From Paraspadella gotoi (taxonomy: Eukaryota; Animalia; Chaetognatha): DNA of 64,000 nt. The notes under the pieces are model-generated. The model saw only the letters and a list, made by a program, of their open reading frames with translations. It was not told the DNA's origin and did no database searches. Numbering within the stretch: position 1 is the first letter of the stretch; every line of letters starts with the position of its first letter. The DNA is taken from positions 9,556,538 through 9,620,537 of the forward strand of contig CM119266.1 of NCBI GenBank assembly GCA_051294375.1, in the 5' to 3' direction. The translations under genes and the position numbers were made by a program. This document shows positions 33,760 to 64,000 of this stretch, piece by piece.

Positions 33760-36700
33760 TTAAAATATCCTACCATTTTCGGATGGTTTGGAGGAAAACT
33801 GAGAATAGCATCCTCGGGTAGATCCTTGCGCAGGATTGTGAATAATTGCTACCCCAGAACTGTTTACTGGACCTTTACTGGGAGGTGGTGAAATTGATTC
33901 ATAATGAGTAGGCATTTCCTTAGTAATTTGTGAAAAGTTTGAGTTCGGGGTCGGATTCATTCTCATTAATTTTGCCGCAGGGGGTGAAGGTTCCAAGTCT
34001 ACTACAATAGGTTGATTGTCGATTCCCTTTCCTCGTTCCATGGGGCGTTTCGTAATTTTGTGCTTCCAATTAAAATGTTCAGATGCAGTATTTGGAATGT
34101 CCACTTCGTTTCCTTTGTTATTACGACCCTCAGAAAAGTATTCTTCGTTTATGATGGCATCTATTCCTTGCCCAAGAGTAATGCTTTTATTATTAGCTAA
34201 ATGATTGACAAGATTTTGAGGACCCAAATTATTTCCGCTTCCACTGGCTTTTCCCAAAGCCTTCTGTTGCTTATACAATTGGGAAACGTCGTCCGGTTTC
34301 GATAAAATTTCAACACCGCCAGTGTCTAATACTACACCACCGCTTGATCGGGATTTTGGATTATCAGTTATACTCTTGGTAATTATTGCGTCAATTAAGT
34401 TCTTTGTTGATAATGTTACTGGCGCTACTTCGGGCTGTTCAATTTTGGAAGTTGTATGAGCAAAATTGCTTATGACCCTTGGATGACTCGGGCCAGTCGA
34501 AAATGACTGATTGGGTAATCTCTCGAGAATTCCATGGGAATTATCGACGTGTTTCGACGTAGGAATAAATCCATCTCGAACTAACGGCGGTAACATTTTT
34601 CGATCAAAACGGTTGTTGGGCAAGTAATTATCTACATCTCTTTCAAGCCGATTCACTCGTTGTTCACGATCATAAGCCGAGCTTTCAGAATCTGTTCTTG
34701 TTCTTTCTGAATCAGTTCTAGTTCTCTCACTGTCTATTCTGTTTCGTAAGTTTCGTGCATCTTGATAAGCTCGCATTTCACTTTCATACTGCGATAGCTT
34801 TTCAACGACACTTTCCTTTGAAGCTTCCATTTCATCCAAAATTTCTTTTCTTTCCCGCTCTCGTGGAGATTTGCCCCCAGCGTTTGCTGGTTGATACTGG
34901 TAAGCGGAAACTACATCTTTTTCTCTAAAAGGTGAGACGCGGGAGGATCGTGTGGATGGGATAACTCTTGGCACATCCAGAGTAGGAGCCTGCGCAGCCA
35001 CGTCCACTAACGCCTGAAAAGCTGAGGAGTGCTCTGATGGCCCTCTGGGACCATCTTCTGGATGCTTGACATTAGGATTGAAGGTTCTTGACGGATCAAA
35101 AACTAAATTTTGGCCTGGATTATGAATAACGCCAAACTTATTATTGTGAGCTAAATGTGCATCTGTCAACAATCCTCTAGTGTGTCTTGGCGAGGTATTC
35201 ATTGTAGAACTACTTTGAGACGCATAAGCCGGTATACAAACCTGTGGAGAGACAGGCGAGTGTCCACGCTTATTTTGCGATAGCTGTGCCTTGGGTGGAA
35301 TGTTAGCAACCTTATTTGAATAAGCTTCCACTGATTGGGCTATAATATCAGCCTGATTAAGATATATTTTCTTATCAGAACTATTCATTATGAGTCCAGA
35401 AGGAGGTTTAACCAAAATATTGTTTGATAATGATTGGCTGGAGACCAATGATGACCCATCTAATGGATGCATGCCTCTATTTTTCATTGCTTGAGCAACT
35501 GCATCTTTTGTTGCCTGTTCGCGCTTAGCACCCAAATCATCAGAAGAAAATCTTTTGTTACCTACATTATGCATCATGTTCTGCGATGTGTGAAAATCTG
35601 TTGCAAGCGTTGATTTAGAGAGGTCGTTTCTTTGAGCACCTGAATTTTTTACGTGGAAAAACGAAGCACTGTCCAGTATAATACCTTGTTCGTCGCTGTG
35701 TCTGGATCGAATTCTATCGGTAGATACCAGCATTGAACTACCAGGAAAAGTCACAGAAGTTTGGGGCGAGGATTGTAGAGTTTGGGGATGTGGTGGAGGC
35801 ATAACACGAGAAGCAGAAAGACCAATATTCAATTCTGAAGCATGAGAGGGTAAAACTGTTGGAGTCCCTCTTGTTATAGATCCATGACTTTGGAGTGGTG
35901 AATGGCTGGGTGAAGGTGCCGCATACGCAATAGGAGTTCCCATTGAAATAGAGCCAACATTACTCGGGGATCCTAAATGACCATGTGAATTTGAATAAAG
36001 AGGAAGACCTGTAATTGCGGGAGAAACTTTCGGCGAATTCGTTATGGATAGCGAAGAGTGAACACTGACGGGATGAGGACTTCCTATATTTCTACGATTT
36101 AAAGAATTTTGACTTGTATTTTTGTTTTCAAACTGAAAACTTCTACAATCATTCGTGTGCTGTGGATCTACAGGAGGTAAAATTTTTGGGTGATGAGAAT
36201 GGGCAGAGGGTGGAGTTAAATGATCATTAATGCGGTTGAAATCGGGATCAGAATTTAATCTATGATTAATCGCATATCCTGGATGAGGGACCGAATTGGT
36301 TGAAATGTGTTGAGACGGATTAAATTCACGTGGAAAAGGATGTGACGAATCTGGATATGGCGATGTTGGAGTACCTCGTCCATGGTTCCTTCCACTCATT
36401 GAAGCATAGGGGGTAGAGGGACCAGGAGACAATACATGAGAACGACTCCCTGATCGTGGTAACTCTCCGGAGCTACTACTAGGACGAGATAAATCCTGAG
36501 GCTCTGAATCAATTTCAGCTAATTGCAAATTACTCTCTGAATGAGACACAGCGGGTGAAAGTCTTACTGGAGGTCCAGAAGTGTCACGGAAATTTCTTTC
36601 TATAGTAGTTTGTATTATTTCTTTAACACTACTAGTACCTTGGGGAACTACTGCTTTTCCAATAAAAGATCGCGGCAGATTGGAAAGAGGCACAAGTGAT

Positions 36701-39700
36701 TGTCGAGGAGGTACTTCTACCTCGCTTCCTCTTTGAACGCCACTAGATACCGCCCGGCTGAATGGGGGAGTCATAGAACATCTTCTTTGTCTCTGCGGTG
36801 TAATTGTTTCATGCGATTCATCAGCACTTAGCGTAGTACTGCTATCATTGTCACAGTTATCGCTTTTCCTTTTCACGCTATCACTACGTTCTCGAAAAGG
36901 CATACTTGTAACAGGTTGAGTCGATCGGAGTATGCTCGAGTGTACCATCTCATTAGGTGACTCAATAGAGAGTGCTTTATTCTGAGAAGAATTCGCAAAT
37001 TGAGTTCCTTCATCTGTTGGGACCATTTCATTGGATCGATTTGATGAAGAATTCGCGTCTGAATATTTTGGCTTAACCACTACATCCGGTAAAGGACTAG
37101 GAGCACTATCAGTGTCTGAGCTTGAATCTGCATTATCTTCTTCATCTGTAGCAACAGACGACATGTCACCTAAATCATCATCTAAATCGTCATCATCATT
37201 AACCGAAGAAACAACACTTTCACAGGTTGATACTGTTCGACGGTTATCTTGAGTCGCCCCAGAAAGAAGTGATTTCTTTTCAGAATCCTTCTGCGTTTGC
37301 TCTTTTTTAAACTGGTGAACAAGTGCTTCTAAGCCTAATTCCCGTTTGTATCTGGCATAAAATCTATGGCACTGAGATGGAGTTTTATCTCCAAGTATAT
37401 TTACTTCATCCATTGACTCTTTTGCAGAGTTCGGATTGACTTTCTCTTCTTTACTAGAAATTAAACTATTGGCAATAGACGACCAGTCTTTTCCAAAATT
37501 GGTAAGAGCATCTTTAAACTTTTTAATTTCACTTTCCGCCCACTGCATATCTTCACCAGCTACGTCGGTCAAAGTTTTAAACTGTGAACCATTTATTCTT
37601 CTGGCTATTCTATTAAAACAAGCGGAGCAGCATTTATCAGCTTCACTGCTTAAGTGCAATTCGGTTACAATTTGCTGTCTTACTTCGACCGTGATTTCCA
37701 ACCAATTTTTCGGAAACGGACGCAGCTTTTTGACTCTACGCTTGGGATTTTTACAAGAAGATATTGGGCAGTGGGTATAACGCTTTCTGACACTTTTACC
37801 ACGGCAACTGTGACAAATTCTTCTGGAAATTTTACTGTCGTTGGTCGGAGCCGGAAGTTCAAAAAATGCACAATCATTTTTCGTTACTTGCCGACTTTGG
37901 TGATAAGAAGAAAGTTGATTCTTACACACGCAACAATTATGCAAGCCATCAGTTTCATTTTTATCCAAATCATTTTGACTGTCACCTTTTTCGGAAAAAC
38001 GTTCTTTATCTTCTTTTCCACTCTCAAGTATATTATTACTAGAGGCATCATCAACGTTAATAGTTCCGTCTGGAATAATTCGTGTTGATTTAGCTTGTTC
38101 TCTAGGAACATCAGAAATATCTCTTGGATCATCACCATCAACTGATTCTTCAGCTTCACGTGCAACATTTGGCTGTTCTATTGGAAGAAGGGTCGTTTCG
38201 TCGCCTGGTCTGGTTGCGATGGGCTTAGTCTTCTCTCGGTATCCCTTCGGTTTACGTGCCGTTTGCTTACGTAACAGCTGTTTGTAATTTTCTCTTTTCT
38301 TCGATTGATAATAAAAAAGTATGCAATCTTGAACAGTTTTTCTTTCCAGATGTGAGGCTATGATTGGAAAATTTTTGGGGTGGTTCAAGTATTGCGTCCG
38401 AAAAATACTTTTTTCGGCTTCAGTCCAATTTGTTGAATTGGCTAATTGTTCCTTGTATTCTGCCATTGGATCTTCTATGACACCATTGTTGTTGACGAAA
38501 GAAATATTTTGATCTTTAGCGTTCAGAATCATGGGTGGAACGACTGCGTACGATTTCATTTTTTTATAATCTTCTTCTTGTTCACGAGAATGATCAACGG
38601 CGGGATCAACCTCGCCTTCCGGCCGTGCCAAACTTGATCTTGGACCAGTTGAAAACGAATTTTCTATGGTGGCAGCACTGGAAATCGAATTAGCGTGTTG
38701 GGAACTGTTTCGAGTCGCTCTCGTTATTCTTTCCCGGTCTTCACGCTGTTTCTTTAATTCGGGAAAAATCCGTTCAAAAAACTCCCGAGTTTTTCCATCC
38801 TTAATACGGCGTTTGGGCGCACTTTCAATTTTTTCCATCTTCTTCAGCCATTCTTGAGAGAGTTGATCGTATTTCTCAGACAAAAATCTTTCGCGAACTT
38901 TCCTCGCGTGATGTTTCTTTCGAAAATACTTTAAAAGCTTCACCCTAAAACGCGCGTGAAATTTCTTATTCTGGTGATAGACCGCTGTATCGCAGGGTTG
39001 ATTGTAGAGTGGAACCGCTTGGCGAAAATCCGGACTCATCAAACTATTTCCAGCCTCCGTAAGAAGAAGTAAAGATTGCGATACCTTCTGACGATTTTCA
39101 GCATAAACCCGTTGAGCGATTAGCAGATGTTTGGGCGTGGATTCGGTTGCGCCCAAACTCGTCACAGCCCCGCAATTCCCAGACTCATTCGTTGGCAATG
39201 GAGTGATCCCCACTTGTTCTTCGTTTTTCACGTGGAAATTTTCATCTTTGATTCCATCATTAACAAATTCCTTCGCAGGGTCGATCTCCATCTTGACCGG
39301 AACCTCTTCTTTCTTTATCGACCTCGTCGAACTTTCCTTTAAGGTAGACATTTTCTTTTTCAGTTTTCTAATATTTTCCTCCGTCTTCGTGATGTCGTGC
39401 TCAAGTCTCGTAATGTTTTTGAGCATTTCATCCTTAGTTTCTTTTCCTCCGGTTTGAAAAGTCTTTGTCGTCGCTGTTGAAACCTTGGCAATGATTGACT
39501 GAGCGATGGGCTCTTCCCCCGAGCCTGGAGTGGGCGAAATGGCTTCGACTTGGGGGACGTAAGACCCGCTGATGGCCGACACGATTTCCGCTCGAGAGCG
39601 ATGCTGCAGGGAAGAAGGCGCGGCCGCGACTCCCGGGGATTCGCGCGCTCGACCGGCGACGTTCAGTTTCTTTGGAGGCATAACGATCGACGATTGTCCC

Positions 39701-40872
39701 GCGGATTCGGCCAAAGATGGCCGGAGGGGGGAAGCCGAGAGTCCATCGATCTTACCACCACCGTTTCCCGGAACATCGATTCTCAGAGGTTGAGAATAGT
39801 CGGGTCTAGCCGCCGTTGAGTGCACCAGACCCAAGGTCGACGACAGGGGATGACCCACGACGATGCCGCCCGGGGGCAAGGCTCGGTCGCGAGCCTGAAG
39901 CACATCCTCTCTCGGATCCCTGGCGTTTTCTCGTTGCAGCGGTACGTCGGAGAGGCGAGGACGTTTTTGATGAGTCGAGTCTGCGGCGGCAGCGGCAATG
40001 TGGGATGACGGCGCCGCCGCGGGCATCAGGAGTGAAGGATGTAACGACGACGGAGGCACGCGAGGCGATGGTTCTTGGTGGGCGGGCGGTGGAACCTGCG
40101 CGGTGGCAGTCGCCCGCTCCAGGCGAGCGAGATCGGCTTGGTGTAGATTTCCGACCGAATTGGAAAATGTCAAGTTTGGAATGACGGCCACGCGCTCACG
40201 TCGCTGCAGTGAAAGCGACGCCGACTCGACGGGAATAAAATGCGAAGAGGATCCTTCGGTAATTCGTCCCCCGGAAGTTGAGCTACGATAGCTGGCGGCG
40301 GCTGCGGCGGCGGCGACGACTCCGCCGTGAGAACTTGCCGGTGGATGATGATACTCGGGGAGCAAGTGAGGGCGCCGACGAAGACCCGGTTGAGGATAAG
40401 ATCCGGAGAGAGGGCTCTCAAGAGACGACGTTGGAGGATAGTGATTGTGCGACTCAATCCTGAAATAAGAAACAAATTTTATTAGTTGTCATAGTTAGCG
40501 AAAAAAATTTCATTATCGAGCTAGATAGGCCCCTTACCTCGAGCTGTAATGCTCCCCAGGTTGAACTTCATGGGATCTCTCGTTCCTGACTGAAGGATTC
40601 GCCGAGGAACTACTTCGATTGTCAACGACGGCGCTGCGATGGGCGTAGTCTGGCAAAGTAGTGGCGTGGTGATAAGCGGTCGGATAACCGGGGATGTAGT
40701 AGCCGGGACTCGGGTTGACGCCGCCGGGCAGAGAGGAGCGAGAGTGGGCGTGTCCCGGACCGGATGCGTGGTTCGACGACGAAGACGACGCCGATGATAC
40801 ATAATGTCTGCCGGAGCCAGAAGTCGAAGTTCCGGACGGAATCCGTCCGTGACCTCCGTCTTTGTGGTACAT
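33760..40872 (-). CDS. NCOR1: Nuclear receptor corepressor (NCoR/SMRT/SMRTER family)
   Basis: YVPQVEAISPTP; GPS2-binding coiled coil; PLYNQP; SANT/DAD (HPKNFPIIASHLERKTVQDCILFYYQSKK); second SANT; GSI motifs; CoRNR-like LIDAIITKSI. Exon 1 is 40872-40538 and exon 2 is ~6.7 kb. Confidence 0.93.
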
Positions 40873-41234: not shown

Positions 41235-45532
<4,298 letters not shown>

Positions 45533-45695: not shown

Positions 45696-47459
45696 TCACA
45701 TCATGAAGCTATAGGCTTTCAATATGGTGGGCGTTATCTTGGACTTGATCTTGCAAAAGCATTTTTTAAACTCGAGCCCGTCTCCTTTGGAAAGTCTGAA
45801 ATCGCAGAGAAAATCCTTGGACTCGATTTCGATGAGAGTCGCCTTGAAGACGAGTGCCTTCTTTCTTCTGTCCGTAGTCGAGACAGTAAAGGAGTGGGCA
45901 TTGGTCCGCTTAAACGTGAACTCGAGTGACTCGAAGACTTTGACCAACTCTGCGGCCACTTGCTCCAACTGGGCCGTCAAGACGAACCGGGTCATCCTCT
46001 TGACTAGCCTCTGAAGCGGCGTCTGCGACGCCTGAGAGTTTTGCGTCCCGAAAATCTGGGAGGAGATGAGCATGTGATCCAGCGTAGCCGGCTGGGAAAA
46101 GCTGATAAGGTCGGGTTCGATCCCGCTGGTGTCTCCGCTGATGTTGGGATCTTCCTGCGCGCGAGAGACAGCCGCTTCTGGCTGGGACACGGCCATCGAC
46201 AAAGATCCGTCGAGGGAATTGTCCCGACTCAAAGAATCCTCGCCAGAGCGGCGCCGCTTAAAAGACGGGCATTCGCCGCTCGGCGACGGCGGACGGCGTT
46301 TAAAGGCGCCGGGGTTCTCCCACTTGCGCGACTGAAGGTCTATCAACATCCATCGGTGCTTTTTTATCTGATGGATGTTGAACCGATCCTCGGGCTCCTC
46401 CACCAACAAGTTCCGGACCAGAGATAGGGCGACGTTGTCTAGTTTAGTCCACGGGGGAAGAAATATCTTATGGTCCTTCCAGTCGCCGAACTCTTTGTTG
46501 CAGGGGCTGGGCGCGTCCCAGGGAAGCTCCCCGGCCAGCATGGCGACCAGAATGATGCCACAAGACCAAATGTCCGCGGGTCGCGCGTGAAACTCGCCGC
46601 CTTGCAGAACCTCTGGGGCGACGTAGGGCATTGTGCCGCAACACTTGGCCAACTTGCGTTCTTTGTCTCGAAGACGGAACATGGTGGCCATGCCAAAGTC
46701 CGTTAATTTTAGGTTGTCATTGTCGTCGAGGAGAATGTTTTCAGGCTTGAGGTCTCTGTGTGTGATACCCATGTCAAAAAGATACTCCACAGCCGAAAGG
46801 AGCTGATGAAAGTAGCGTTGTGCCTGGGGATAAAGATTTTAGTTTTCTAATAAAAAATAATAATTAAGATTATAATAACGCAAAATATCAACTAGTAATG
46901 AATTAATTAATCATATTAACACGGTAAAATCTAATAATAATAATAATAANNNNNNNNNNAATAATAATAATAATAATAAGCGTTTTGACGAGTTTTTTTA
47001 AAAACATAATTCTTACCGATAATTATGAAAAATTACTATTTACTAACCGCTGCAGGGTGCATCCCCAGATCGGGTTCAATTCGATCGAACAACTCTCCGC
47101 CGCTAGCGTATTCCAAAAACATGTACATAACTAAACCTTCTTCTCGTTGACCGTAAAAACGAATGCAATTAGGATGATCGATTCGACGGTGAATGAGCAC
47201 TTCTTTTTTGACTGATTTCACCGCTTCGCTGCTCTGAAGCCCAAGGGATGAAAATATTCTTCTTCGAGTTTGAAAGTTTCGAATAATTAAAGGGCGATGA
47301 TCGTCCTTTTTTTACCTGATCTTTTAATTGCAATATCTTGACGGCGACGGCTTCATTCGTTGTTGAATTCACGGCCAACTTGACTTCTCCGTAGGTTCCT
47401 TCGCCCAAAGTTTGAATAAACTGCCAACCCTCGACAAATTCACAGCCCCTTTCGTTCAT
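45696..47459 (-). CDS. CHEK1: Serine/threonine checkpoint kinase 1
   Basis: [23 protein letters not shown] cluster (AVSQP, FSQP), [21 protein letters not shown]. Confidence 0.97.
46933..46979. repeat. (AAT)n microsatellite spanning an assembly gap (N run) in a CHK1 intron
   Basis: AAT repeats on both sides of the N run at ~46950-46959. Confidence 0.95.
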
Positions 47460-47782: not shown

Positions 47783-50700
47783 TCAAACTTGAACCTCTTG
47801 AACTTCGATAATATCTTTTATCGATTTGAGCTCAGTAAGTTTGTAGGGAACTAAAATCCCGTTAGGAAATCCGCGAACTTCGGCGAGGAGATAACCGCAA
47901 TGTTTGGCGGACCTTTCTTTCACAAATATAGTGTCGCCCTTCAGCAGGGTCCCGATCGAATTGCTATCGCAATGATAGACGCTCTTCATCGTGCGGTATT
48001 GAGGAAAACCTGTTGAGATCAGGTTTTCTAAATAAATCGATATTGATATATTTTATAAATTTTAATTTAAACGTACATGATGCGTATAATAATACTACTT
48101 TTGTGAATGTATGCGTCAAAGATACTATAAAATATTGTTGTACCAATTTCATAAAACGAGAAGAATCTCGATGAAATCCAGTCAGGAACAACAATTCTAC
48201 ATAAAATCTTACCGATTTTCCACTTTCCAGAGACGGAATACTGACGCGGCGGAGGAATGGGCGGAGGCAGGGTCGTCGGCGCCGGAATCATCGCGCCGGC
48301 GTCATCCTCCGGCATCAGCGTTCGAGCCGTCGAGGAGTGACGGACGCGACATGGTTCGTCAACGACTGAAGGAGAATCAATTTCGGAAACCTCGGAGATT
48401 TCCGTCAATTCCGGCAAAGTCAAATCCTCGTTCTTGGTGAACGTTCGATCTCTGGCGAAGGATGGTAAGGCTTTGTGGGTGGGTGGGTGGAGGAGTGGAG
48501 ATTCTCGCCCTTTGGCCAAGAGGTGGAGGGATGACAGGGTGGAGAGGTTTCGCTCGAGGTCGATGCGCGGCGTCGACGGCGGAGAAAAGGGCGGAAGTTC
48601 CCCGGGGGCCAGGGTTCTTTTGAGACCGGAGAAAGGGACAGGGTCGTCGCGGTAGGACGAAGTCGGCGATAGGCGATCGTCTAGACGAAACGGAAAATTT
48701 CGGACGAAGAATCTCTGAATGGTTTTAGCGGCGTGAAAGCGGCGCAGCTCAAGAAGCTCCTCCACCAAATGGCGGAGCCGCTCGCTGAGGAACAAGTGCC
48801 GCCGCCCGATGGCCCACATGGGAAAATCCGAGCAGATGCATTGATTCAGAGTCGTCAAAAGTTCCTGGCAAGCTTCGAGGGCGCCGTCGGCGTCATCGCT
48901 GCGCCGCCAGTCCAGTGGCAAGAGACGCCGGTACCGGGCGATAAAGTCCTTCAATCGCAGACGATGAGCCAGTCCGTTTTGCATAAGGAATTGCGTCTGG
49001 GGAATCTGCATGGCCTTTAGTTGTTGACGGACGATTCCCTTGTCGAACCAGCCGGCGACGCACTCGGTATTGGCCTTGATGCAGCGGATAAAGTGCGGCT
49101 TGGAAAACTCGAGCGTCGCCAGGAGAGAGTCGACGCGTTGCAAAAAGTCTTTAGCCAGCGTTCCGTCGACGGACGCCGGGGTGGAGCCGGAATGGCCCGG
49201 ATGAATTCGAAACTCGGAGCCCTGAGGGCCGCGATCCTTCATAGCCTTGATCTCGTGATTGAAAAGGTGCGACGCGAAACCGAATCGACAAAAGTCGGCG
49301 TGGAACATGAAGGCCAAGTCGTCAGGCAGCGAGTCTCGATTAGATTCTAGAATATGCGCCGTCTCGTAATCGACGTCACTGCGATAGTGCGTCACGCCAA
49401 AGACGCCGCGGTTGTCGTCTGGAAAGAAAAGTCCGGGCTTCTCCGCGTGGACGACCTTGAGTCGATCGAGGAACGCCTCGTCGTAGGAGACGGGGCTCTG
49501 GGCCTCCGCGTCCAGCAGCGAAACCAGATTAAGAGGAACGCGCGTTAGAGTCGGCAGGCAAGTAGAGTTTTCGGCGAAAGATACATGAGTACCGGCGTGG
49601 TCCGTCTGGAACTCTTCCTTGTACGAATTGATGGGAGTCTTGAGGACGTGGCACGTGTAGAAATCTTGAAGCATCTCCGCGCTCATGTTGATGCAAAACT
49701 GCTCTAGGTTGTTGGCGCACGAGTTGGAAGATTTGGGATGGTTGGTCTCGAAGCCGAACATATCTACGATACCGATAAACAGTTCCGGAGATGACGAATC
49801 GGCGCCATTTTTCTTACGGGTCATCGTCCCTGGCTCGTCCTTTGACTTTGAGGAAGACCCACCGCCGTTGGCTCGGCGAATTACGGATTTGAGCATTCGA
49901 CAGTATAGCGTACGTGCCAGTTTGTCCTTGGAACGGTTCGCATCGTTGGGACTAACGGAAGTGTTAAAAACTTGTCCAGAGACGCGGAGACTTCGCGAGG
50001 TTAGCGCCTGATGTAACGTGGCGGTGGAGACGCCCAACAGTTCAGATACTTGTTCGAACTCGCGTCCGCCGACAACCTCGATGGTGCCTGGTGCGCCTCC
50101 GGTGATGAACTTCACCTCACCCAGTAAAAGGCAGGCGGCCAATATGCGCGTCACGTCGGAGAAAGAAATGCCCAGCGTGGTCAGGCAAGAACGCCAAGAT
50201 TGAAAGCGGGCAGAATCTTCCTTCTCTTCGGAATAACTGTAAACCAGGCCACTGTTGAGATATTTCAAATTCGTGGGTAGACGATCGGAAAGGTGAAATT
50301 TGCGTTTCTCATCGGGGGAAAGTCCTAAAAAGGAATTCATTTTTTTTCAACGGGCAAGTGTTATGATAATTTTAAATACTTGTTTATTAACGATTCGAAA
50401 GCCAGGCTCACCAGCTAGCATCTGATAAAAAACGTTGAAATTTCTTTCGTCCCTCCTGAGGCCGGTGAGTCGAGCGTGATCCACGAAGCAGGCGTGAATC
50501 TTCGCCCTGTGAATCGCACGATCCTGGATTTGGATTTCGTAAAAAAATCCAGCCCTCGAGCTTTCTGGGTTGCTGGGGGTTTGAGCCGTCGTCAGAGTTC
50601 TTATCACTTGTAGAGCAGAGGATATGTGCTTAAAAGTGTCGTTTTCGAGACCGCCGCCTGGGGAATAGTATTCATTCATAGGTTTTTTTTCTCTCAATCG

Positions 50701-51051
50701 GTTCATAAAACGAATTGGGATAAAAAGTGAAAACTCACCCGCGCTGGCGAAAATTTCCCGGAGCAGCAAAAGTGAAGCGTGAGATTTTCCGCTGCCGCTG
50801 TCGCCATTGAGAACGACCGTCTGAGACTTGCCCGATTGCGCCGCCTCGTCGAGCACCCGCTCAGCAACTTCGCCCAAGGGACTCGGGTCGGGATCTTGCG
50901 TCGGCGTCAACAGCCATTCGCTGCTCGAACCGAAGGGATTCACGAACAACAAAACGGGGCCGGTGTACGAATAGTTTTCGGATTTGTTGTAGCGAATTTG
51001 TAAAGTTTGAATGAGCGCTTCCTCCATAGCCTCGTACATTGGGGCCTCCAT
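47783..51051 (-). CDS. d: Dachs-like unconventional myosin
   Basis: P-loop GDSGSGKS; dachs-type GGGLENDTFKH..NPESSR; DMFGFE; PHFIRCIK; IQ-like motif; PPPIPPPRQYSV and an SH3-like C-terminus (FPQYRTMK...VPY). Confidence 0.85.
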
Positions 51052-52043
51052 TTTATTGTCGGTTTTTTTTCTAAGGGGCGACTTCTCTGCAATCAAAGAA
51101 AAAAAACTTTATACAAATACTCGGTAGTAGGAAGGAATAGAAACTGATTTGAGGTAAATTCGGTCTTTTCGTGTGATATTAGGTTTTAATAAAATCAAAG
51201 TGACTAATTGGGTAAACTGTAAGTAAAAACCCGATGAATGGCTGTAACACCGGAACGAAACTCCTCTACTAGGAACATGACTACATAAAAAAATACTTAT
51301 TAATCATCACATAAACGGGGAATAAAAAAATCAATACTAACTTTGTTTAATAAAAAAAATTAATGATTCGACAGTGACCTGGGGTCTTTGGACAAAATTC
51401 AAAGCCCAAAAAATATAAGTAAAATTACTTATTTATCTGAAAAATTACTATCCCTTCAAAAGTTCCTAGTAATTCAAAATTAAAAACGAATAAAGACTTG
51501 AGACTGTATAAAACTATATAAAATTTAGATTGAATAAGTCACAATCTATGGCACGAATTCAGTTTGTAAAAATATTGTAGGAGAGAAAACATTAATCCGA
51601 TGTCCAATCATCAGAAATATATATAATAAACAATGCTGGAAGGAACAAGCACATTTTTTTGCTTTTAATCAACAGTTGTGTTGATGTCCTGATCCTTAAG
51701 CAAGAAAATACCCGTGGTACAAAAAGAGGGAAAAACAAATTTTCATTGCTTGTGAATTGCAAAAAATGATTTGAAATGAGTAATTTATGCATAGGATACG
51801 TATTGCGACGCTGATACCCGAGAACAAGATTATAGAAAAATATGCTTAAGAAGTATACTTACATTTAAACAGATAATATATTATTTATGAAAACACTTAA
51901 AACTACAAATTAACACATAATAGAAATGCTTTTTCGTCGAAAATTTGAAAGGGAGATCCTCTTCTATTATGCTTTAATCCGCATTTCAAAAAGATAAGTT
52001 TACTATGACTTAGATTTTGTTATTTATATGCCAATATTCTTGG

Positions 52044-55000
52044 TCATATCGGTGGGAAGTTAATGCCAGGGGTGCCAGCCATGGGATTCGTAGGGTTATG
52101 CGTTTGCATATTAGAGTAGTAAAGACTGAATTGCAGCCTATCTTCAACTTCTCTGCGAGCAGCTTCGAACTGAGGCGTAGTGTCATAATCATGTTCCACC
52201 GTTTTATGGACCTGCAAATAAGTGTTTCAAATTTTTGTAGTTAGGTTCTGAAAACTAAGTGATGAAATAAGTTATTTAAACCTATATCTGATTTAATCAT
52301 CCTAACCATAGTTATTATAGTTTACCGTTTCGGACACAGGGTCGATCCAGACGGCACCCTTGCATTTTTTATCTCTTTTATACATGCAGAGAAACAAATG
52401 CAAGGGATACGGTTTCGACACTGGACGATCGAAAACGTAACGCCATCCTTTGTAGCAAAGCTTCGTCTTTCCCCTTTGAGATGGATATCGCACGATGGTT
52501 TCTGAGAACAAATCAATAATAAATAAACAATACTGGTTGTTAGAACGGATTCGTCGTCTGTCAATTTGACTTACCTGAATTGGGGTCCAAACCCTTTAGT
52601 CCGGCTAAAGCGTCGGCAGTTAAGTTATCTCCGCCCTCCAAGCCACCGCCGACAGCGCCACCGCCGACAGCGCCACCGCCTCCCCCACCTGGGGGCCTTC
52701 CAGTGTCGCGGCTGCCGCCCGGTGGAGGATCGCCGGAGGAGATCCCGAATTCGCCCCCTAAATAGGGATGGGGATGGGCGATTAGAATGTAAGCTCGGAT
52801 TCATAATTAAATCGAGTGAAACTAACCTCGTTGCCCGACTGCGGTAGCGCCGTTCCCACCACTCCCAAAGGCCGATCCTCCGGCCGGGATGTCGTCTTCG
52901 TAATCTCCCATACCGTTGTCGCTCCCAGGGGGTGATCCAGGCTCGTGATGACCTGATAACGAAAAAAAAAACAACCTAAAATCAAAAACCAAGAAGAGGC
53001 AATTTTGTTTATTTAAATCCTAAGGTCTAAAATCCCAAATCCGGAATCTCGATTCAGTAAACTCTATCTCACCAGACGGTGGCGGGATGTCGATTCCTAG
53101 CGGCGGGAATCTCGAAACTGCGTCCGAATAACGGGTCGTCGTTGGGTCACCATGACCGGCGTGGTTGGCCATGTTCGCGCCGTCGGCGCCCGCGATGGCC
53201 TCATGCGGCGACGCGAAACGCGCAGCGCCGACGTCAGTCGACGCGCCAGAATCGGCGCGAGCGCGATTATCGTGGCTCGAAGCCGCCGCGTGATCCGGTC
53301 TGGAGTTCGGTAATGAGCGAAATAAAAATTGAAGGGGGGGAAGATAATAAATAGTGACGTCACAGCCTTTGTTACGATTGAGATGGTTCGGATTTTTCAC
53401 ACCGCGGGAGCGCGAATTAAGCTTCTTAAATGTCACGAATGGCAAACAAAAATCGATTCTTCAGTAAAAAAAAAAAAAAAAAATTGGCGCCGGTCTCATT
53501 TTTTTTCCTACCTCACAAAAACTTCGCTGACGCCGACGTGATTATCGACGGGGTTTCCGGAAGAAGCGGCCGCGGCGACGTTGGCCAACTCTTGCTGAAA
53601 GGCTCGCTGCGCGCGGTCGAAAAACGACACGGCGTGCTTCAAATCGCGGTCGTCGATATCGCCGTCTAAAAAAGCCGATTGGGAGGATTAAGATGTAAAG
53701 AAAATGTTGGAGCAGAAAAAAAAATGGGAAAAAAGAACGAAAGAATGGATGAAACATTTCGGTGGAGGAAAAAATGATAAAAAATGCGTAACATGAAATT
53801 ATAGTGGGAAGTAAAGCGTAGCAAAAATATTAAAATCTAGTTGAATCAAAATTCGAATAGTAGATCACGAACAGGCTTGTTGTACCTGTGAACATTTTTA
53901 AATCAAAAAAATATTTTTTATTTTAAATTTTCGCATACGCCCATATTTATGCATAGTACTTACCATAGAAAATGTTACAATTTTAAAATTGCTTTTCTTA
54001 TTTTTGAAAGCAGATTCGAATTCCTAACGAAAAGTTGATAAAAGGAAATATAACTCTTTTTAAAAAAATTATTTCATTAAGTGGGTCAAAATCCTAAAAA
54101 ACTGTTATAGTTAATTTATAATTTAATTTTAGCATAAAAAATAGTTTTTTTAATTTTTAATTTTTGATTAGGACTCATATTTTCTTTTATCAACTTTTTA
54201 TAAGGAATTTGAATCTGCTTTTTAAAAAAAATTATATATCAATGTTCTTTAGTACAAGACTGTTCATGAACTATTCGAATTTTGATCTGCCTTAGTGGGA
54301 AGAGTAGTATTTAATCATTTACACACCTTTGGTCTCTCTTATTTCTTGAACCTCTTCTTTCAAAAGAGGGTTGGATTCCGTCGTTCCTGAGATGATGGAT
54401 TCCGTTCTGCACGAATAATGCGCAGGAAGAAACCTAAAATAAAGGAGGGGGAAAAAGGGATGGGTCAAGGGCCAAGGTCGGTCTCAACGAAAAACTCTTT
54501 ACGACGAAGGGTGAATGAGAATCACCTGGAAGAGGCGTGATGGCTGTTTATCGTTGTAGCGTTCAAAATTTCCGACGGCGTCGAAGCGGCGTTATTGGCG
54601 AATTGCTGAAGCGGCAGCGGCTGCTGCTCCGGTTTGACGTTGAGCGGCGGGGAGATATCTTCGAGTTCCACGTAGTCATTGCTGGAAGCGGACCTGAGAA
54701 TGCTGGGCTGTTTCGACGAGGATGGCACTGAAGGGGAGGAGAGAAAAAGAAATGAGGATAACGTCTGGAAAACAATACTTGCGAGGGTCGTTTAGAATTA
54801 GCACCGGTTATATTAGTAACAGGACTGAGCAGATGATTCGACGGTTTTAAACCGGGATGAGGAGAGATGTTGGAAGCCACGGCGGGCGGTAGGCTGAGTG
54901 AATTTGAAAGCTGAGGTAATTGTTGTACGGAGCGAGAAGAATCTGAAAATAAAGAGCCGAAACATAAGCCTCATACTCCGGCAAAGCCTAACACGACTTA

Positions 55001-55741
55001 GACTCACCTCTGTCAGAGTTGGCACGCTTCCGAGAGGTTTGGATGGAAGGGTCAGTGCTGGGCGCGACGGCGTGATTGGAAGAGTGATGGCGCGAGCTGG
55101 CGTCACGCTCCCCACGTCCACGATGCGTCTCCGGCAAAACAATCGGGGCCGGCGGCGAGATGGCGCCGCCTGCGCACAATAATGGAGGACGAAAAATTAA
55201 ATTATAGCCTCACAAATAAATTTTAAAAGTTTAATTTTAGGTACCTCCGAGAGGATTGGTGACTCCCGCCTGGGCGGCCAGCATCTGAGATATTTGGTGA
55301 TGCATTTTTTTATGTAACTGAATCTGCATTCGATGGACGTCCTGCGAAGGCGCGTTGGCGGGTGCCGCCGGCTTCGCGGTCGACTTCTTGATCAAAGAAG
55401 AGACGCGTGGGTCGACGTCGAATTCGGTGTCGCCGGGTTCCGGGTGCAGCCGCCCGCTGACGAAGAAATCCCTGAGTTGCTTCCGACCCGCCCAACAACG
55501 ACCCTCCGTGGCAGAGTTGACCATAACGAACACGTCCGCATCTTTAAGAGGAAGTTTGACTCGATAAAAGCGGTAATTTTTTTAAAAATATTTATTTATA
55601 AATTTGTTTATAAACACTTTTAAACCAACCTGTCAAGGAAGAGAGTTTCAAGACTGCCTCCATGAGTATGGTCGTTAAAGAACTTTCGAGAGGCTGACTG
55701 GCCAGGCCGAGAATAGAGGTAGATAAATTGGCTCCCGCCAT
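52044..55741 (-). CDS. Multi-exon protein with a small N-terminal globular domain, low-complexity middle and C-terminal FLYWCH-type zinc finger (internal exons approximate)
   Basis: Exons 55741-55630 and 55541-55244 splice in frame. The penultimate exon gives SQRGKTKLCYKGWRY..LC..KKCKGAVW, followed by VHKTVEH. Stop at 52044. Confidence 0.65.
53845..54286. mobile_element. MITE-like palindromic element in an intron
   Basis: Perfect 17-bp inverted ends (ATCAAAATTCGAATAGT / ACTATTCGAATTTTGAT) and inner inverted arms at ~54007-54051 and ~54177-54222. Confidence 0.75.
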
Positions 55742-55974: not shown

Positions 55975-57298
55975 TCACTCGTCTTCTTGCCAATAAAAAG
56001 ATAAAGTTGGGACGTCAACGACCTCGGGTGTAGAGTCCAGAGAGTCAACGCACTCTGGCAGTTCCAGCGAGTGATACGACAGAGCCTGACCGGGGAGCAC
56101 GCCGAGCGGAACGCTTCGCCAATCGATCGAATCCTCGTCAACGGCCTCGATCGCTTTATCGTCTCGACTCGACTCGGTCTTTTCCCCTTCGATCCTAAGT
56201 TTAAAACTCGAACTCTTCTCTCCGAAAACGCTGGGCAAGTCGGAGACGAGGTCGATGTCCTTGGATTGCTCATCCCAGTAGGTTATCTGAATCCAGAAAA
56301 AAAACGAAAAACAAAGTCGAAGATACTCATCGTCGTAAATACATAACAGAAAAAAAAAGAAAATAAAAAAAATATCTAGATCCAAGATCGAACTCTGTAA
56401 ACATCTCTATTTCACAACTAAATAAGAGAAAAAACAAACCAACCTTGAGCCATTCGAGAGCCACGGAGACGCCATTTCTCAGCAAATCCATGGACGGGAG
56501 GGCGTAATGCGTGGCTTCGTGACGAATGTTGACCAGCCATTCGGGAAGACCCATCTCGCCGGCCAACATGTGAATTGCTTGAGCAGTTTTCTTTTGAAGC
56601 AACTCTGAAAAAAGAATATTTTCAATACGAAGAAAGCGGACAAAATAAATCGTAAGCTTGATGAAATAACCAATCTCTTTCTTAGCGTATAAAAAACTAA
56701 AACAATTGCCGATTTAATTTAATTACTTGAAAAAACAAACCTGTGGCGAGATTGATGAATCGAACGAGAGCCATCGAATAGGCAAGACGAATTCCGGTCT
56801 CCTCAAAATTAACAAGCTCTTGCGATCGGCATTGATCCATTAGAGCGACTCGCATCAAATCGACGGTACAAATAATCGCCACCGGAAGCGATCGCGGCGA
56901 TCTAGAGGAAGTTAGATATGCGGTAAATAACAGGTAATCTTATTTTTCCTTCTTTCCTCTTCCAATTTATAACATCAGCATCGTCCTGTTCCTCTGAATA
57001 CAAACTACGTCGTAAGATTCTCCCCTTTCTCTCTGACTTCAAAATTACACGGAGGGTTTCCCTCTATTTCCTTAAACTATTGTAACTTTCGATAGTCCTC
57101 AAGTAAAAGTTTCAGATAAATTATATCAATATTAGATAAATACTATATCGGATTCCGAACTGACTTGCTTCTCCACGCGTCGATTCGATCAATGGCGTGT
57201 CTCTGTTTGGACGGAATGGCGGAGAAGAGTTCGTCGCGAACCAAGCACCATTCGGCCGTCGATATCCATGGAACAGAAACCAAGCCAGAATCAAGCAT
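55975..57298 (-). CDS. LAS1L: Ribosome biogenesis endonuclease LAS1-like (short form)
   Basis: VPW..AEW, IRLAYSMALVRFINL, LPEWLVNIRHEATH (HEPN RxxxxH), YW, and C-terminal W..VPLGVLP; four exons. Confidence 0.9.
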
Positions 57299-57510: not shown

Positions 57511-58086
57511 CTACGTCCGGGGCGTGCGCCAATTCGACTGGGTAGGCTGCTGTACGACCTGTATGGAAAACGGAAGCAAAGGTTTCAATGCCATTAGCAT
57601 CTGTGGATTACAGTGAACATCTTATCAAGACTAATCCACACATGCCTGTAAGTTGGAGATGCCCGTCATGTCGAGAGACTTCAACATCTCTTTGGTGTCG
57701 GCGTCCACCTCGATCACGTCCATCGCGTCGATGTACGAGATCTCGGGGACGTAGTTGTCGCGGCGCTCGCGCTCTTCCTCCTGGAGTTTGATGGAGATAC
57801 CTGGGATCGAAAAAGGGGTGGGGAGGAGAAGGTGAGGCGATCGTTTTCAACCGGAACTTCTCTCTTGGGCGCTTTAATACTCACCCCGAACGGGTCCCCT
57901 CTGAATACGCTTCATAAGGTGAGTCGTGAAGCCGGCGATCTGGTTGCGGAGGCGCTTGCTGGGGATGATGGCGACCTCCTCGGCGATGCGTTTGTTGGTG
58001 TGAAAGTCGGAGCCCAGGCGCGTGTAGTACTTCTCAACGATCACGCGCGCCGCCTTCTTCACGGTTTTGGTGCGAACTCGACCCAT
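57511..58086 (-). CDS. RPS17: 40S ribosomal protein S17 (eS17)
   Basis: [29 protein letters not shown]. The second intron has a GC donor (CAG|GCATGT). Confidence 0.98.
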
Positions 58087-58235
58087 TTTTTTATTTTTTC
58101 GATTTCTCAAGAAGAAAAAAACTTAAACCTGGAAATATATATTAAAAGAGTAACTAAATAAGGCGCTTTGGATGACGATAAAAATAATGGGTAGGAGACA
58201 AATACGGAAAAAAAATGTTAACAAATATAAAAAAA

Positions 58236-58692
58236 TCATTCTAAATAAAGTTTTCTGTTGATGGATGAAAGATCGATATCCGCGATTGGTGGGATGGCGC
58301 TTTCCGGGAGTTCGTCAGCTGGTCTCGGCAAATGACAGGCGCCGTCCGTAATAGTTTGGATGGAGTCGAAGGGCGCCGTGTGGAAGAGGCTAAACCCGAC
58401 GAGGACAACGGGAATCGCGAAAAACGCCATCGCTGCGGGAACGAAAATGAAAGTCTACATTTGACAAAAAATAACTCGGGGATCAAATCGAACTAAGCGC
58501 GAGATACGCACTGAGAAATATCGGAGCGGAAATGGCCCAATGTTTCTGCGGCCAATACGTTAGTCCCACTGCATGAAGATACTCGTCGGGAACGAGAGAC
58601 CAAACGAGATAAATGATGATGAAAATGCTGCTGAACAAGTAAAGCACGAAACCATAGATGGCTCTCTCCGGATCCGGAGATGGGGAGGACAT
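58236..58692 (-). CDS. PIGP: GPI-GlcNAc transferase subunit P
   Basis: PSPDPERAIYGF, LTYWPQKHWAI, TITD, IPPIADIDLS.IN.KLY. Confidence 0.93.
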
Positions 58693-58704
58693 TGTCGCTT
58701 TAAT

Positions 58705-59436
58705 TCACTCTCGCTTCCGCAAATCGTTCCCGGTTTCAGTCGGCCCTAGGGTTTCGAGTTCTTCCTCGCTCCGCGCGCGCGGATGCTGTTGCTGCGGCTG
58801 CTGCTGAGGCTCCTCGCCTTCGGAGAACTGCAGCAGGCGAAACTTGGTGAGCTGATGTCGCACCAGCGATCGATTGGCCACGTAGCCGAAAATCAACTGC
58901 GCCGCGAGAAAAGCGAGAAGGACGAAATTGAGGGCGCGCTCAAAGGGCAAGAGCAAGAAGCGATCGTAGAAAGTGTAAAAGCCGAGGACGGGGATTTGTA
59001 TCAACGTGAGCAGCCAAAAGCCGGATAGTTCCGGAACCTTTTCCGTCAAGTTGCCGAGATAACCGAGATAGAGACGACCGATTTCCAAGAAGGAATAAGC
59101 CAGTAGAATAGTGGACAACAGAATTTTGTAAATAAGTTCGACTCTTAAGAAAAGAAAAATCAGTTACGATATAGTTAGACAATAGACATAGATATGGTAT
59201 AGATATGGTATTATGGAAACAATAAAACTTATTAATGACAATAACCTATTAAATTTGAGCGCAACGACGAAGCCTGTGCAGATAAACCAGAGAGGAAGGT
59301 AGCAAACGTTGAAAAATAATGACATCTGCAGAGGAAGGCTGCTCATGTACCGACTTTGTGTCAAGCCGAAATCCCTGCGATCTTTGCTGTCTTCCGTCAA
59401 GGTTTTCACGCCTGAACCACGAAACTTTTGAAACAT
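58705..59436 (-). CDS. TMEM17: Transmembrane protein 17 (ciliary transition-zone family)
   Basis: SSLPLQMSLFFN, RLYLGYLGNLTEKVPELSGFWLLT, LPFER. Confidence 0.9.
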
Positions 59437-59747
59437 AAAAAATATAGCAGTTTAAAAGACTGAAACCTCAAGAACGAGTTTTAACCGGGAAAAAGCGGGT
59501 CAAGTGAGGCGACGACGTCTCGTTTGGCTTGACGAAACCTAGCGGTGGACGTGATCGTAGCCATAGAGCGAGTTCATCGTTAATGATAATGTTTCTTTCT
59601 AAAAGTCAACAAGTAACAAATAAGCAAATATGTCAGGATGTATGTATATCAAATTAAAGACCATCCTCTGGTCACAACGGGAAACCCTTGTAAAAATGGG
59701 TAAAAATTATCGCGATAAAATTATGGAGAGTTTTTTTATTTTCAAGT

Positions 59748-61086
59748 TTATTTTGGTTTCGTTTCCTGATCGGTGACGCGTCGGATGAAAATGGCGTCCT
59801 CCGGATGTTGCTTGTCGTCTTCCGCTTCGTCCTCGTACATGTAAGAACTGCGGGTAACGATAAATTTTCATAAAGCGGCGACGCCTACGCAAAATGATTC
59901 AAAAGTTAACGGAAATCGTACCTAGCAATGGCCAAGACGGCGCCGTCGTGACTGAAGGCCAAAGAAGCTATGGACGTGGGATATCTGTGGAATTGGCACA
60001 ATCGCTTTTTGTTGAAACCGTCCCAGATGTTCACGAGGCCGTCGGAACCACCGGTAGCGAACGTGTTGTATTGGTTGTGGAATGCTGGAAAAAGAGCGAG
60101 ATGGTTAAGACTGGTAATAAAAACTTAAGACTAACGCATATGTAAGTGATTACCGATAGCGTTAACGGGATAAATTAACTCCGTTCCGTTTTCTTTTATC
60201 CGATGACATTTAAATGCGTATTTTTTCTTTTGAACCTCCGGCGACGGATCGAAATACTCTACGGCGACTCTTCCTAAGACCGAAATAAAAAAGTCATCAA
60301 ATATAAAAATGCAAACAATCCATATCAATAATTATCATTAATACCTTCGATGGACGAGAGAACGTATCCCTGCTTGCTGGGGAACCCACGAATGCAGCGA
60401 ATCTGGTACTTGAGAGAGGATTCGCGTTTTTGCTGGACTGAGCTCATGGAACGGATGTCCCAAATCCAGACTTTTCGACCGGCGGTTCCCACGACCAGTT
60501 TCTCACCGGAAACCGTCATCGCGTAAACACGGTCCGGCTGCTGATATGTTCCCACGCACGAACCTGATCGGGGATCCCAGATCTTCACCGAAGAATCCCA
60601 ACTGCCTATAAGAGGAGAGGAGTTTTAAGTAAATATACGAATTCAACATAGCACATGCAGCAGAAACGATTGGCACCCGTGGCAATGACGTTCCCATCGG
60701 AACAATATTCCACGCAACGAATCGGCGCACGGTGACTTCCGATAGTCGTCTCGTGTCCAGCGTTGAAGTCGTACATCTTTAGGTTGTTGTCACAGTCGCC
60801 GCTGTAGGCGTGAACGGCGTCGTGAAAACAGCAGTCGAGGACGGGTGCCGAATGCCTTTTTCAGAGTAAAAATTGAAAATCACATACGACACGAACTGAA
60901 CGGGCTCGATCCCATGACCTACTTGTACTGCATCCTCATCGTGTTGGCGTTGATGTCGTAGAGTCGGACCGAGGAATCCCATGACGAGACCAAGAGGTAC
61001 TGCGAGGAGTTGGGGGAGAACTGCAACGAAGTTATGCCGTCTGTCGGGGGCTGCCCGATCTTAAACTCGTTCAAATTCTCCGTCAT
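59748..61086 (-). CDS. BUB3: Mitotic checkpoint WD40 protein BUB3
   Basis: [49 protein letters not shown]. Confidence 0.96.
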
Positions 61087-61377: not shown

Positions 61378-62136
61378 TTAATCCTCGTCTTCTTCCTCGT
61401 CTTCCTCGTTGTTTATCTGGAAGTAACGAAGCTCGTAGGAATCTTTGGCCGAGGCGACGACGCGCAGCCAGTCCCGAAGGTTGTTCTTCTTCAGGTACTG
61501 CGAGGTAAAAAGAAAAAAAAATAATAGTCGAGACCGAAAAAAATTAGTAAAGAAAAAAACATTTCATTTCTTGGAGGCCAGAGGTTCCAAAAGTTTGAAC
61601 TTACTCTTTTGGTGAGGTACTTGAGGTACCGTTTCGAAAAGGCGACGTCAGCGGTCACGATGATCTTGGCCTTGTTTTTTTCGATGAGGACGCTGTTCCC
61701 AAGGTTCCCCGTTTTTCCGTTCACCTTAAATTTAAAGGTCGATTTGAGAGATTATCTCTGCGAATAAGAATAATTTACGCCAGCAAAGAAATCGGAAGTC
61801 CCGTGGAAAAGGTTTTAAAAGAAAAAGATGCTTCGAAGAAAACAGCTTTCTTTTTGTTCACGATGTGAATCTCTCACAAACAACAAGGAATAAAATTCGA
61901 CCTTTCACCCTAAAAAAGGCTTACATGCAAAAATTATTTTTACTTTCGAGGTATGAATAAACTTACGACAGTCGCACCTTAATTCTTTCGTGAAGGTATT
62001 TCTCAAAGTTTCCCGCGTCCAAAATCCCATCTTCGACGGGTTGAGTGCAGTTGAGGATAAATTTATGCGTGATTTTTTTCTTGCTTCCGCCTTTTGCTTT
62101 ACCCTTGGCCGCCGTTTTCTTTCCAGCGATCACCAT
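61378..62136 (-). CDS. RPL22: 60S ribosomal protein L22 (eL22)
   Basis: [47 protein letters not shown]. Confidence 0.97.
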
Positions 62137-62237
62137 TTTACAGGGTTTTTTCTTCTTTAAAAATTAAAACTTTAACAATCTGAAAAATAAAACAATATAA
62201 CGAATCACAGTAATCTTACGGTAAAACGGACAGTTTA

Positions 62238-63042
62238 CTAATCGTCGCCGAGGTCGGGGTCTTTCTCTCCCGAGTCACTATCGTCGCGTTTAGTATCGGT
62301 GACGTCTACATGTTCGATTGTTTCGAAGGAACCATCGTTGGACCACACGGCCATCACGTGGATCTTAAACTCGGCCATCTGGCGTCCGAGCAACTTAAGC
62401 ACGCGTGCTTGTTCTGGTTTAAGAACGTCGCCGTTTGTGCAAACTTTGTGCTCCTTTGTCAGCGTCACCACGCCACGTTCGAGCTTGGTGGGCAAGCCCA
62501 GCCCGCGCAGTTGAGGCTCCATTGAGTGTGAAAATCCTTCCATGGGCCCGGCGGGAATCGTGACGTCCTCTTCGGCCAAGCAGCCAGTCCGAGCGAAATC
62601 CAAATCAGAGTAAGAGTCGAACCACGATACGACATCGTCCTTGGTAGAATTGGTGAAGAGCAACCCGCGTTGACCTTTGAGGCATCCGCTTACGCGGTGT
62701 AAACCGTCTTTGTATTCTTCCTCATCGGAATTGCCTAAAAACAATTGTGGTTTTTAAAGGTTTTTAAAGGGATTTATTTATATACTTTTTAAGCGGGAAA
62801 TAGACCTTACCCAACGCTAAAGCCATAACTTTGTTTTTCCCGAAGAAGAATTTGCTGTGACGCCATTCTTCGCGAACTTCCTTCAGTTTATTATTTCGCA
62901 TATTTTCCACTCTGACGACGAAGACTCGGGCGTATTTGTCCGCCGCATCTCTCACTTTTTTCACGACCTCCTGCTTCAATTCGAGCCCCTTTTTCGACGT
63001 TCTCGTCAGGGAGATCGTTTTTTCCCTTTTTGACTTGGGCAT
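62238..63042 (-). CDS. MRTO4: mRNA turnover protein 4 homolog (ribosome assembly factor)
   Basis: MPKSKR, NMRNNKLK, FFFGKNKVM, GLLFTN, HSMEPQLR.LGLPT. Confidence 0.96.
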
Positions 63043-63298: not shown

Positions 63299-63953
63299 TT
63301 AGTCGGACTCTTCGATGATCTCGTCGTCCGAATCCGAGGCGCTTTCATCGAGATCCGAGGACAAATAGTACTGAAGAGGATTGGACCAGAGATCTTCTTT
63401 GATGGCCTGAACAAACGGAGTAAAGGTAGAATAAGGAATCGAAGAGTTTTTTTCCACTGTCGTCAACCAGGCTAAAAAGGTAAACGAACTTCGGCGATGT
63501 CGTCGTTGGAGGGATCATTGTTCTCCGCGAACCACGAGAAAAAGGATCGGTGGCTGACGGAGTTGCGTTTTTGCCCGACTCTATTCTGGATCGCTTTTTG
63601 CTTTTTGCAAAGATCGACGCCCGGAAGCCACTTGAAAGTGCACAAAATTAATACATTAATAGATAATTTCATGGAACAATACAGTTGCATAGTATAAAAA
63701 CATACAGAACCAAACAATGAAAATTGGCTTTATACATCTGGAGTTAAATCGCTTAAACAACGACATCGTTATTTCACAATAACCAGTTAACTAACTCTCT
63801 CCTCTAATAAATTATTTTCCATATTTTTCGTTAGGCCTTTCATAATTTGCAATAGAAGATAATAACCCTCACTAATCGATGCGAATGACCTCGGGTTGTG
63901 GGCAGCTCACAATTTTCGCCCGACGGACGGATGTTGACTTCGCGTTTAATTAT
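63299..63953 (-). CDS. SET/TAF-I/TSPY-like NAP-family histone chaperone, 3' exons (5' part outside the window)
   Basis: W.PG.DL, SFFSWF, DDIAEAIKEDLWSNPLQYY, acidic tail. Confidence 0.85.
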
Positions 63954-64000
63954 CTGTTGGTTCGAGAGAAGAGGAACGATAACACGAAGAGAAAGGAAAT

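Follow-up and report, generated by a model that had tools for sequence, protein, structure and literature searches.

A minus-strand array of at least 13 genes in the chaetognath Paraspadella gotoi that is probably transcribed as a leader-resolved polycistronic precursor

Operons resolved by spliced-leader (SL) trans-splicing are known from the animal phyla listed in PMC2776167, and the published accounts, as far as their accessible text goes, provide the following frame. In the chaetognath Spadella cephaloptera, leaders have been described together with a two-gene operon, RPS14-PCNA, in which 3 nucleotides (nt) lie between the poly(A) site and the acceptor (PMC2481426), and chaetognath leader genes have been placed in the 5S cluster (PMC2566580). 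For Paraspadella gotoi, trans-splicing affects 10,197 of 21,072 genes, and a 250-bp rule applied to gene models places 18% of genes in operons; the longest operon in the accessible account has nine genes, development and signalling genes are depleted from the operons, and no operon-specific leader is reported there (PMC12460157). Maximum operon sizes in other animals are given as 2-8 genes for C. elegans and up to 9 for Macrostomum (PMC8629364), up to 7 for Ciona (PMC7986045) and up to 14 predicted genes for Pristionchus under a loose 3.5-kb cut-off (PMC4138322), and Oikopleura operons have been defined by a 500-bp rule (PMC11067885). A literature search for a longer animal operon, covering few subscription papers, found only these maxima. 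Here we analysed a 64,000-nt stretch of P. gotoi DNA (NCBI GenBank assembly GCA_051294375.1, contig CM119266.1, positions 9,556,538 to 9,620,537 of the forward strand; hereafter the window), in which a run of at least 13 genes is probably transcribed as a polycistronic precursor and cut into single messages by leader addition. The run is likely an operon because it combines same-strand order with a known spliced leader on the RNA of one of its genes.

The array consists of 13 unrelated genes, all on the minus strand and arranged head to tail over about 30 kb (33,760-63,630). A first-pass annotation had counted at least 13 minus-strand genes here, and the count was borne out by 12 intact gene models together with the last two exons of SET, with no Pfam match on the plus strand. 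Each of the 12 models, built from coordinates, yielded a clean ATG-to-stop translation on the minus strand without an internal stop. The array models contain 41 introns with a median length of 87 nt, 40 of them GT-AG and one GC-AG; the second intron of RPS17 (57559-57645, minus strand) is GC-AG and is joined in RNA. Pfam families were matched by 33 of the 148 minus-strand open reading frames (ORFs), covering 12 of the 13 genes, with two of the 33 matches being weak and probably due to chance, and by none of the 98 plus-strand ORFs of at least 60 amino acids (aa) between 33,988 and 63,694 at E 0.01. Coding DNA occupies 72% of 33,760-63,630. The genes are given below in array order, with splice joints in aligned RNA contigs noted as RNA joints.

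63299..63630, minus strand: SET / NAP-family gene, last two exons (PDB search match to protein SET, E 3e-5; intron 63489-63407)
62238..63042, minus strand: MRTO4-like gene, 242 aa, 1 intron (Pfam Ribosomal_L10 and RL10P_insert; RNA joint)
61378..62136, minus strand: RPL22, 132 aa, 2 introns (Pfam Ribosomal_L22e; RNA joints)
59748..61086, minus strand: BUB3-like WD40 gene, 328 aa, 5 introns (Pfam WD40; 5 RNA joints)
58705..59564, minus strand: TMEM17, 227 aa, 2 introns (Pfam Transmemb_17; 2 RNA joints)
58236..58692, minus strand: PIGP, 125 aa (Pfam PIG-P; relatives start at the same residue)
57511..58086, minus strand: RPS17, 134 aa (Pfam Ribosomal_S17e)
55975..57298, minus strand: LAS1-like gene, 255 aa, 3 introns (Pfam Las1; gene model)
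52044..55741, minus strand: FLYWCH zinc-finger gene, 683 aa, 11 introns (Pfam FLYWCH; internal exons total 1772 nt, as RNA record 4 requires)
47783..51051, minus strand: divergent myosin, 965 aa, 3 introns (Pfam Myosin_head; gene model)
45696..47459, minus strand: CHK1-like kinase, 485 aa, 2 introns (Pfam Pkinase; gene model)
41235..45532, minus strand: POLR2B (RPB2), 1187 aa, 7 introns (Pfam RNA_pol_Rpb2 domains 1-7; gene model)
33760..40872, minus strand: NCoR-like gene, 2344 aa, 1 intron, last gene of the array (Pfam Myb twice and GPS2_interact at 26.7 bits, cut-off 27; gene model)

Same-strand adjacency with short gaps, as expected of an SL-resolved animal operon, is present. The stop-to-ATG gaps from SET to NCoR measure 256, 101, 291, 183, 12, 149, 212, 233, 992, 323, 163 and 362 nt (median 222.5 nt; 11 of 12 below 500 nt and 7 of 12 below 250 nt). 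The first-pass annotation had given 11 of these 12 values exactly; its 311 nt for BUB3>TMEM17 was corrected to 183 nt, because TMEM17 has an upstream exon (ATG at 59564) that had been missed and whose intron is joined in RNA. Under independent orientation, the shared strand of 13 genes has p = 2.4e-4, for a run chosen by eye in a single window. The array is open at its upstream end, where SET is cut by the window edge and the head lies beyond position 64000, and it ends below with the NCoR-like gene, which faces a plus-strand RING-finger gene at 29,055-30,458. An Rfam search of the window returned no family and no leader gene, and a repeat search revealed no element common to the array gaps.

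RNA contigs were aligned to 44,500-64,000, a range that leaves NCoR and the POLR2B>NCoR gap outside, and the alignments listed comprise 15 of 45 joints, 16 of 89 loose ends (six from contig set X1) and 20 of 343 pieces. Since 14 of the 15 listed joints match modelled introns, set X1 represents spliced RNA of the source organism or of a very close one; the only matches of sets X2 and X3 to this range were short and unrelated. One joint, 56369-61384, was set aside as a likely artefact with 21 letters on one side. Contig depth differs about 20-fold between genes and was not used, since depth cannot rank genes.

The first-pass annotation had proposed a search for a non-genomic leader at messenger 5' ends, and such a leader was found on RPL22. 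The RPL22 contig departs from the genome right after an unpaired AG, and the last 16 letters of its loose end, TTTCAATTTGTTTAAA, are identical to the 3' end of the chaetognath leader SL2.0 (Table 3 in the accessible text of PMC2481426). These 16 letters are absent from the window. A non-genomic spliced leader at an unpaired AG on a downstream gene, as in SL-resolved operons, is thus present on RPL22. Two further contigs, at RPS17 and CHK1, break exactly at an AG, a dinucleotide found at 5.5% of positions; the contig starts of LAS1, myosin and POLR2B do not fall on an AG.

62180..62181, minus strand: RPL22 trans-splice acceptor AG (loose end at 62179, leader joined there; 43 nt before the ATG)
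58129..58130, minus strand: likely RPS17 trans-splice acceptor (contig aligned from 58128, with 7 unaligned letters before it; 42 nt before the ATG)
47471..47472, minus strand: likely CHK1 trans-splice acceptor (contig starts at 47470 by length arithmetic on exon models, on the assumption that every contig letter is genomic; 11 nt before the ATG)

Protein relatives of RPS17 give a further indirect sign of leaders. Of 27 relatives that carry an N-terminal extension, three open with a leader-like peptide, and one, P0011, matches translated SL3.2. RPS17 exon 1 matches two S. cephaloptera eS17 entries at 99% identity, compared with at most 91% for other named proteins among the 120 matches listed, and the full model agrees with S. 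cephaloptera eS17 (P0006) at 124 of 134 residues; the closest named RPS17 relatives and the SL2 leader end are therefore both chaetognath. A scan of metagenome contigs with P0006 recovered 80 eS17 loci. None of them is chaetognath-like, and neither a leader motif nor a shared neighbour accompanies any of them; the neighbours of the best locus, L066, differ from those of RPS17 in the array.

At three array junctions the RNA of the upstream gene stops 74, 2 and about 53 nt short of the next acceptor. The 2-nt value comes from the myosin contig, which ends at 47473, with two bases between it and the start of the CHK1 contig, by length arithmetic that assumes all contig letters to be genomic. The 74-nt value comes from FLYWCH: one RNA contig (record 4) begins in LAS1 exon 1, crosses the 233-nt gap and the whole of FLYWCH and ends at 51161, and its internal length fits the model to the base. 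This contig covers most of the 992-nt FLYWCH>myosin gap, as follows.

51161..52043, minus strand: RNA-covered part of the 992-nt FLYWCH>myosin gap (883 nt; end of record 4 at 51161; ATTAAA at 51190)

The covered 883 nt are likely the FLYWCH 3' untranslated region (UTR). The earlier suggestion that this gap is a promoter region splitting the array was not supported in that form, because with RNA over 883 nt the gap is not an empty promoter region; a promoter inside the FLYWCH 3' UTR is possible.

To score the gaps themselves, an acceptor matrix was derived from the 41 introns of the array, for which true introns have a median score of 6.8. Within the 100 nt ahead of each of the 12 ATGs, the highest acceptor score is 5.6 on average, versus 3.7 +/- 0.8 in dinucleotide shuffles, of which 5 in 1000 reach the observed value. 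Five of the 12 genes (RPL22, BUB3, RPS17, LAS1 and myosin) score at least 7, with the acceptor 35-62 nt from the ATG, and AATAAA or ATTAAA is present in 6 of the 12 gaps. Acceptors are also predicted at 63091, 59599 and 45545. Three of the five high-scoring sites, all unpaired, are the following.

61149, minus strand: unpaired acceptor-like AG before BUB3 (score 11.1)
57352, minus strand: unpaired acceptor-like AG before LAS1 (score 9.6)
51087, minus strand: unpaired acceptor-like AG before myosin (score 8.6)

A short motif, TTGTTAA, resembles the leader 3' end and lies within 80 nt before the ATGs of RPL22 and LAS1 and of four genes of a neighbouring run (RPL9, RPL8, NAP1 and a lysine-rich gene). 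This motif, which was picked post hoc, occurs in 6 of 23 upstream regions versus 0.5 in shuffles, in 3 of 23 downstream regions and not at all in 3,922 nt of intron.

Taken together, these data suggest a model in which polymerase II would read through the gaps, each upstream message would end in or near a gap, close to the next acceptor, and at most starts an unpaired AG, some 10-60 nt ahead of the following ATG, would receive the leader by splicing; TMEM17 and PIGP may remain joined as one message. By analogy with other animals that use leaders, the run most likely functions as a single long operon or a few overlapping ones, perhaps with some internal starts. The first-pass claim of a long polycistronic unit is partly supported, by a non-genomic leader on RPL22 that matches SL2, in a phylum where operons are established. 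Its surprise was overrated, since in P. gotoi trans-splicing reaches about half of the genes and operons hold 18%. One promoter serving all 13 genes is possible and rather doubtful. Its widest form can be put forward only tentatively: one promoter beyond the window might drive at least 13 genes over at least 30 kb, including the second subunit of RNA polymerase II, a checkpoint kinase and an NCoR-like co-repressor, and together with the neighbouring 11-gene run this might mean a genome partly organised in long directional blocks that meet at strand switches, with the longest tightly packed animal operons yet seen.

Several observations weigh against transcription as a polycistronic precursor. 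A leader alone does not show an operon, because only 18% of P. gotoi genes lie in operons and about half are trans-spliced, and leader letters were seen on one of the 12 gene starts, among 16 of 89 loose ends. In the RPL22 loose end, the 14 letters next to the 16 differ from the 5' half of SL2.0. Branching of the assembly graph among SL2 variants could explain them, since published variants differ just upstream of the 16 shared letters (accessible text of PMC2481426). Acceptor scores before ATGs were not significantly above those after stops (100 nt, p = 0.13), no good acceptor was found within 100 nt of the ATG of PIGP, FLYWCH or NCoR, and a donor-like GT in the RPL22>BUB3 and FLYWCH>myosin gaps permits an ordinary 5' UTR intron. 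The bridging of LAS1-FLYWCH by one contig and, judging by equal joint depth, of BUB3-TMEM17-PIGP fits a polycistronic precursor, yet a contig that bridges two genes does not show a single transcript, as overlapping UTRs would give the same result. Finally, a stop-to-ATG cut-off of 250 nt leaves a longest run of 6 genes and one of 500 nt gives 9 + 4; the run reaches 13 only if the FLYWCH RNA end is counted. MRTO4 and RPL22, 101 nt apart with the leader on RPL22, form an operon under the P. gotoi rule of at least two genes less than 250 bp apart, at least one of them leader-bearing (PMC12460157, as accessible), and for all 13 genes the outcome of this rule depends on UTR ends.

The same evidence can be read as several short operons and single trans-spliced genes that stand in a row by chance, with compact promoters inside the 3' ends of upstream genes. 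Most trans-spliced P. gotoi genes do lie outside operons, 5 of the 12 gaps exceed 250 nt and the three genes named above have no good acceptor near the ATG; nevertheless, RNA ends within 2-74 nt of the next acceptor at three junctions, and one strand holds 24 of the 26 genes or long ORFs tallied across the window (p about 1e-5), which separate promoters do not require. We regard this arrangement as unlikely. It is very unlikely that these are ordinary genes in a compact region without polycistronic RNA and that the RPL22 leader is an assembly chimera. Such an artefact would fit a leader that comes from one contig with farther letters foreign to SL2.0, and contig depth and bridging cannot show single transcripts, but the 16-nt match to the leader of the phylum falls exactly on an AG, two further contigs break at an AG, RPS17 has relatives with leader-like peptides, and the 12- and 101-nt gaps offer little space for promoters.

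The remaining alternative, that parts of the array are stable multi-gene messages translated uncut, is highly improbable and concerns above all TMEM17 and PIGP. Its basis is the 12-nt gap without a pyrimidine-rich acceptor and one spliced contig path through BUB3, TMEM17 and PIGP, where eight RNA joints of equal depth span the three genes and suggest that they form one contig. Against it, an ATTAAA stands immediately after the TMEM17 stop codon, the last TMEM17 exon contains weak AG sites, overlapping UTRs would yield the same contig, and the explanation is inapplicable to RPL22, which has its own leader. A polycistronic precursor cut by leader addition is the likely reading for the array as a whole.

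The PIGP ATG lies 12 nt past the TMEM17 stop (58692-58705, minus strand) with no good acceptor between them, and from the sequence the pair is a candidate two-gene messenger or, alternatively, has a candidate leader site inside the last TMEM17 exon. A contig departs from that exon at 58905 with at least 255 letters, and the 30 letters inspected are absent from the window. The six listed loose ends of set X1 comprise this one, the one at 62179 and four in a repeat within a FLYWCH intron. A PIGP search returned 21 relatives, with no leader-like or TMEM17-like extension in the 7 N-termini inspected, and a literature search for the TMEM17-PIGP pair found nothing relevant by title.

Beyond Pfam family level, the names MRTO4, BUB3, CHK1, NCoR and, for the RING-finger gene, RNF11 are provisional and given by likeness. 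The label 'dachs' given earlier to the myosin gene was not confirmed, as only a myosin head and two relatives (P0142 and P0143, 74-75% identity to the array myosin) were found; P0142 is likely derived from genomic DNA of a related animal, because it reads through an intron placed as in the array myosin. Nearly all 2344 codons of the NCoR-like gene lie in one 6.7-kb exon (33763-40459, minus strand). An AT-rich repeat (53666-54326) in a FLYWCH intron, whose 70-nt inverted arms lie at 53998-54067 and 54161-54230, has matches in many divergent RNA contigs and is likely a small mobile element.

The plus-strand RING gene closes off the array. Beyond it lies a second minus-strand run, with 11 genes, which extends from 8544 and below to 28441 with gaps of 150-648 nt (median 246.5 nt). 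This run holds ALG10, an ABC-F gene, a DEAD helicase, two RRM genes, RPL9, RPL8, NAP1, a lysine-rich SMAP-domain gene, an unassigned gene and an enoyl-CoA hydratase-like gene.

29055..30458, plus strand: RING-finger gene, ATG to stop (Pfam zf-RING_11, E 1e-11; RNF11-like)

ALG10 (minus) and the RING gene (plus) diverge with about 610 nt between their ATGs (28441-29055), making this stretch a candidate two-way promoter on the strength of its layout; a short plus-strand ORF within it (28592-28825) has no Pfam match. Farther down, an 867-codon low-complexity ORF at 1534-4137 (plus) also has no Pfam match and is preceded by two near-identical copies of a stretch of about 230 nt (about 530-1250).

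In summary, the mechanism, SL trans-splicing combined with operons, is already published for chaetognaths, and only the length and the gene content of this array stand out. The array is likely longer than the nine genes reported for the phylum, and its length is at or above the top of the operon sizes found in the literature search. If it is one unit, animal operons can exceed eight or nine genes and hold regulators as well as housekeeping genes, and the very different message levels of, for example, ribosomal proteins and NCoR would be set post-transcriptionally; should it instead consist of several units, it would be an ordinary case of something that chaetognaths are already known to have. 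The locus is also a compact system in which to study how 3' ends and leader addition are coupled in a lineage without an operon-specific leader.

Directional gene clusters of kinetoplastids hold tens to more than 100 mostly intron-less genes, cover the whole genome and are resolved by leader addition. The array resembles them in its long one-strand run of unrelated genes, in the meeting of runs at strand switches and in leader addition, but it has 41 introns, ends after 13 or more genes at a single opposite-strand gene and is known here from one window. A kinetoplastid-type organisation is argued against because only about half of P. gotoi genes are trans-spliced (PMC12460157, as accessible). 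With nematode, tunicate and flatworm operons the array shares unrelated genes placed head to tail, gaps near 100-300 nt and resolution by a leader; it differs in size, as the sizes in the accessible reports are mostly maxima smaller than 13 (7-9 genes, with 14 in Pristionchus under the 3.5-kb rule), and in belonging to a phylum for which no operon-specific leader is reported there. The closest likeness is to chaetognath operons, with the same phylum, an SL2-type leader, same-strand housekeeping genes including ribosomal proteins and a very short distance from RNA end to acceptor; compared with them, as described in the accessible text, the array has at least 13 genes versus a published maximum of nine under the 250-bp rule, and its genes include those for a kinase, a myosin and an NCoR-like co-repressor, in contrast to P. 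gotoi operons, in which development and signalling genes are depleted.

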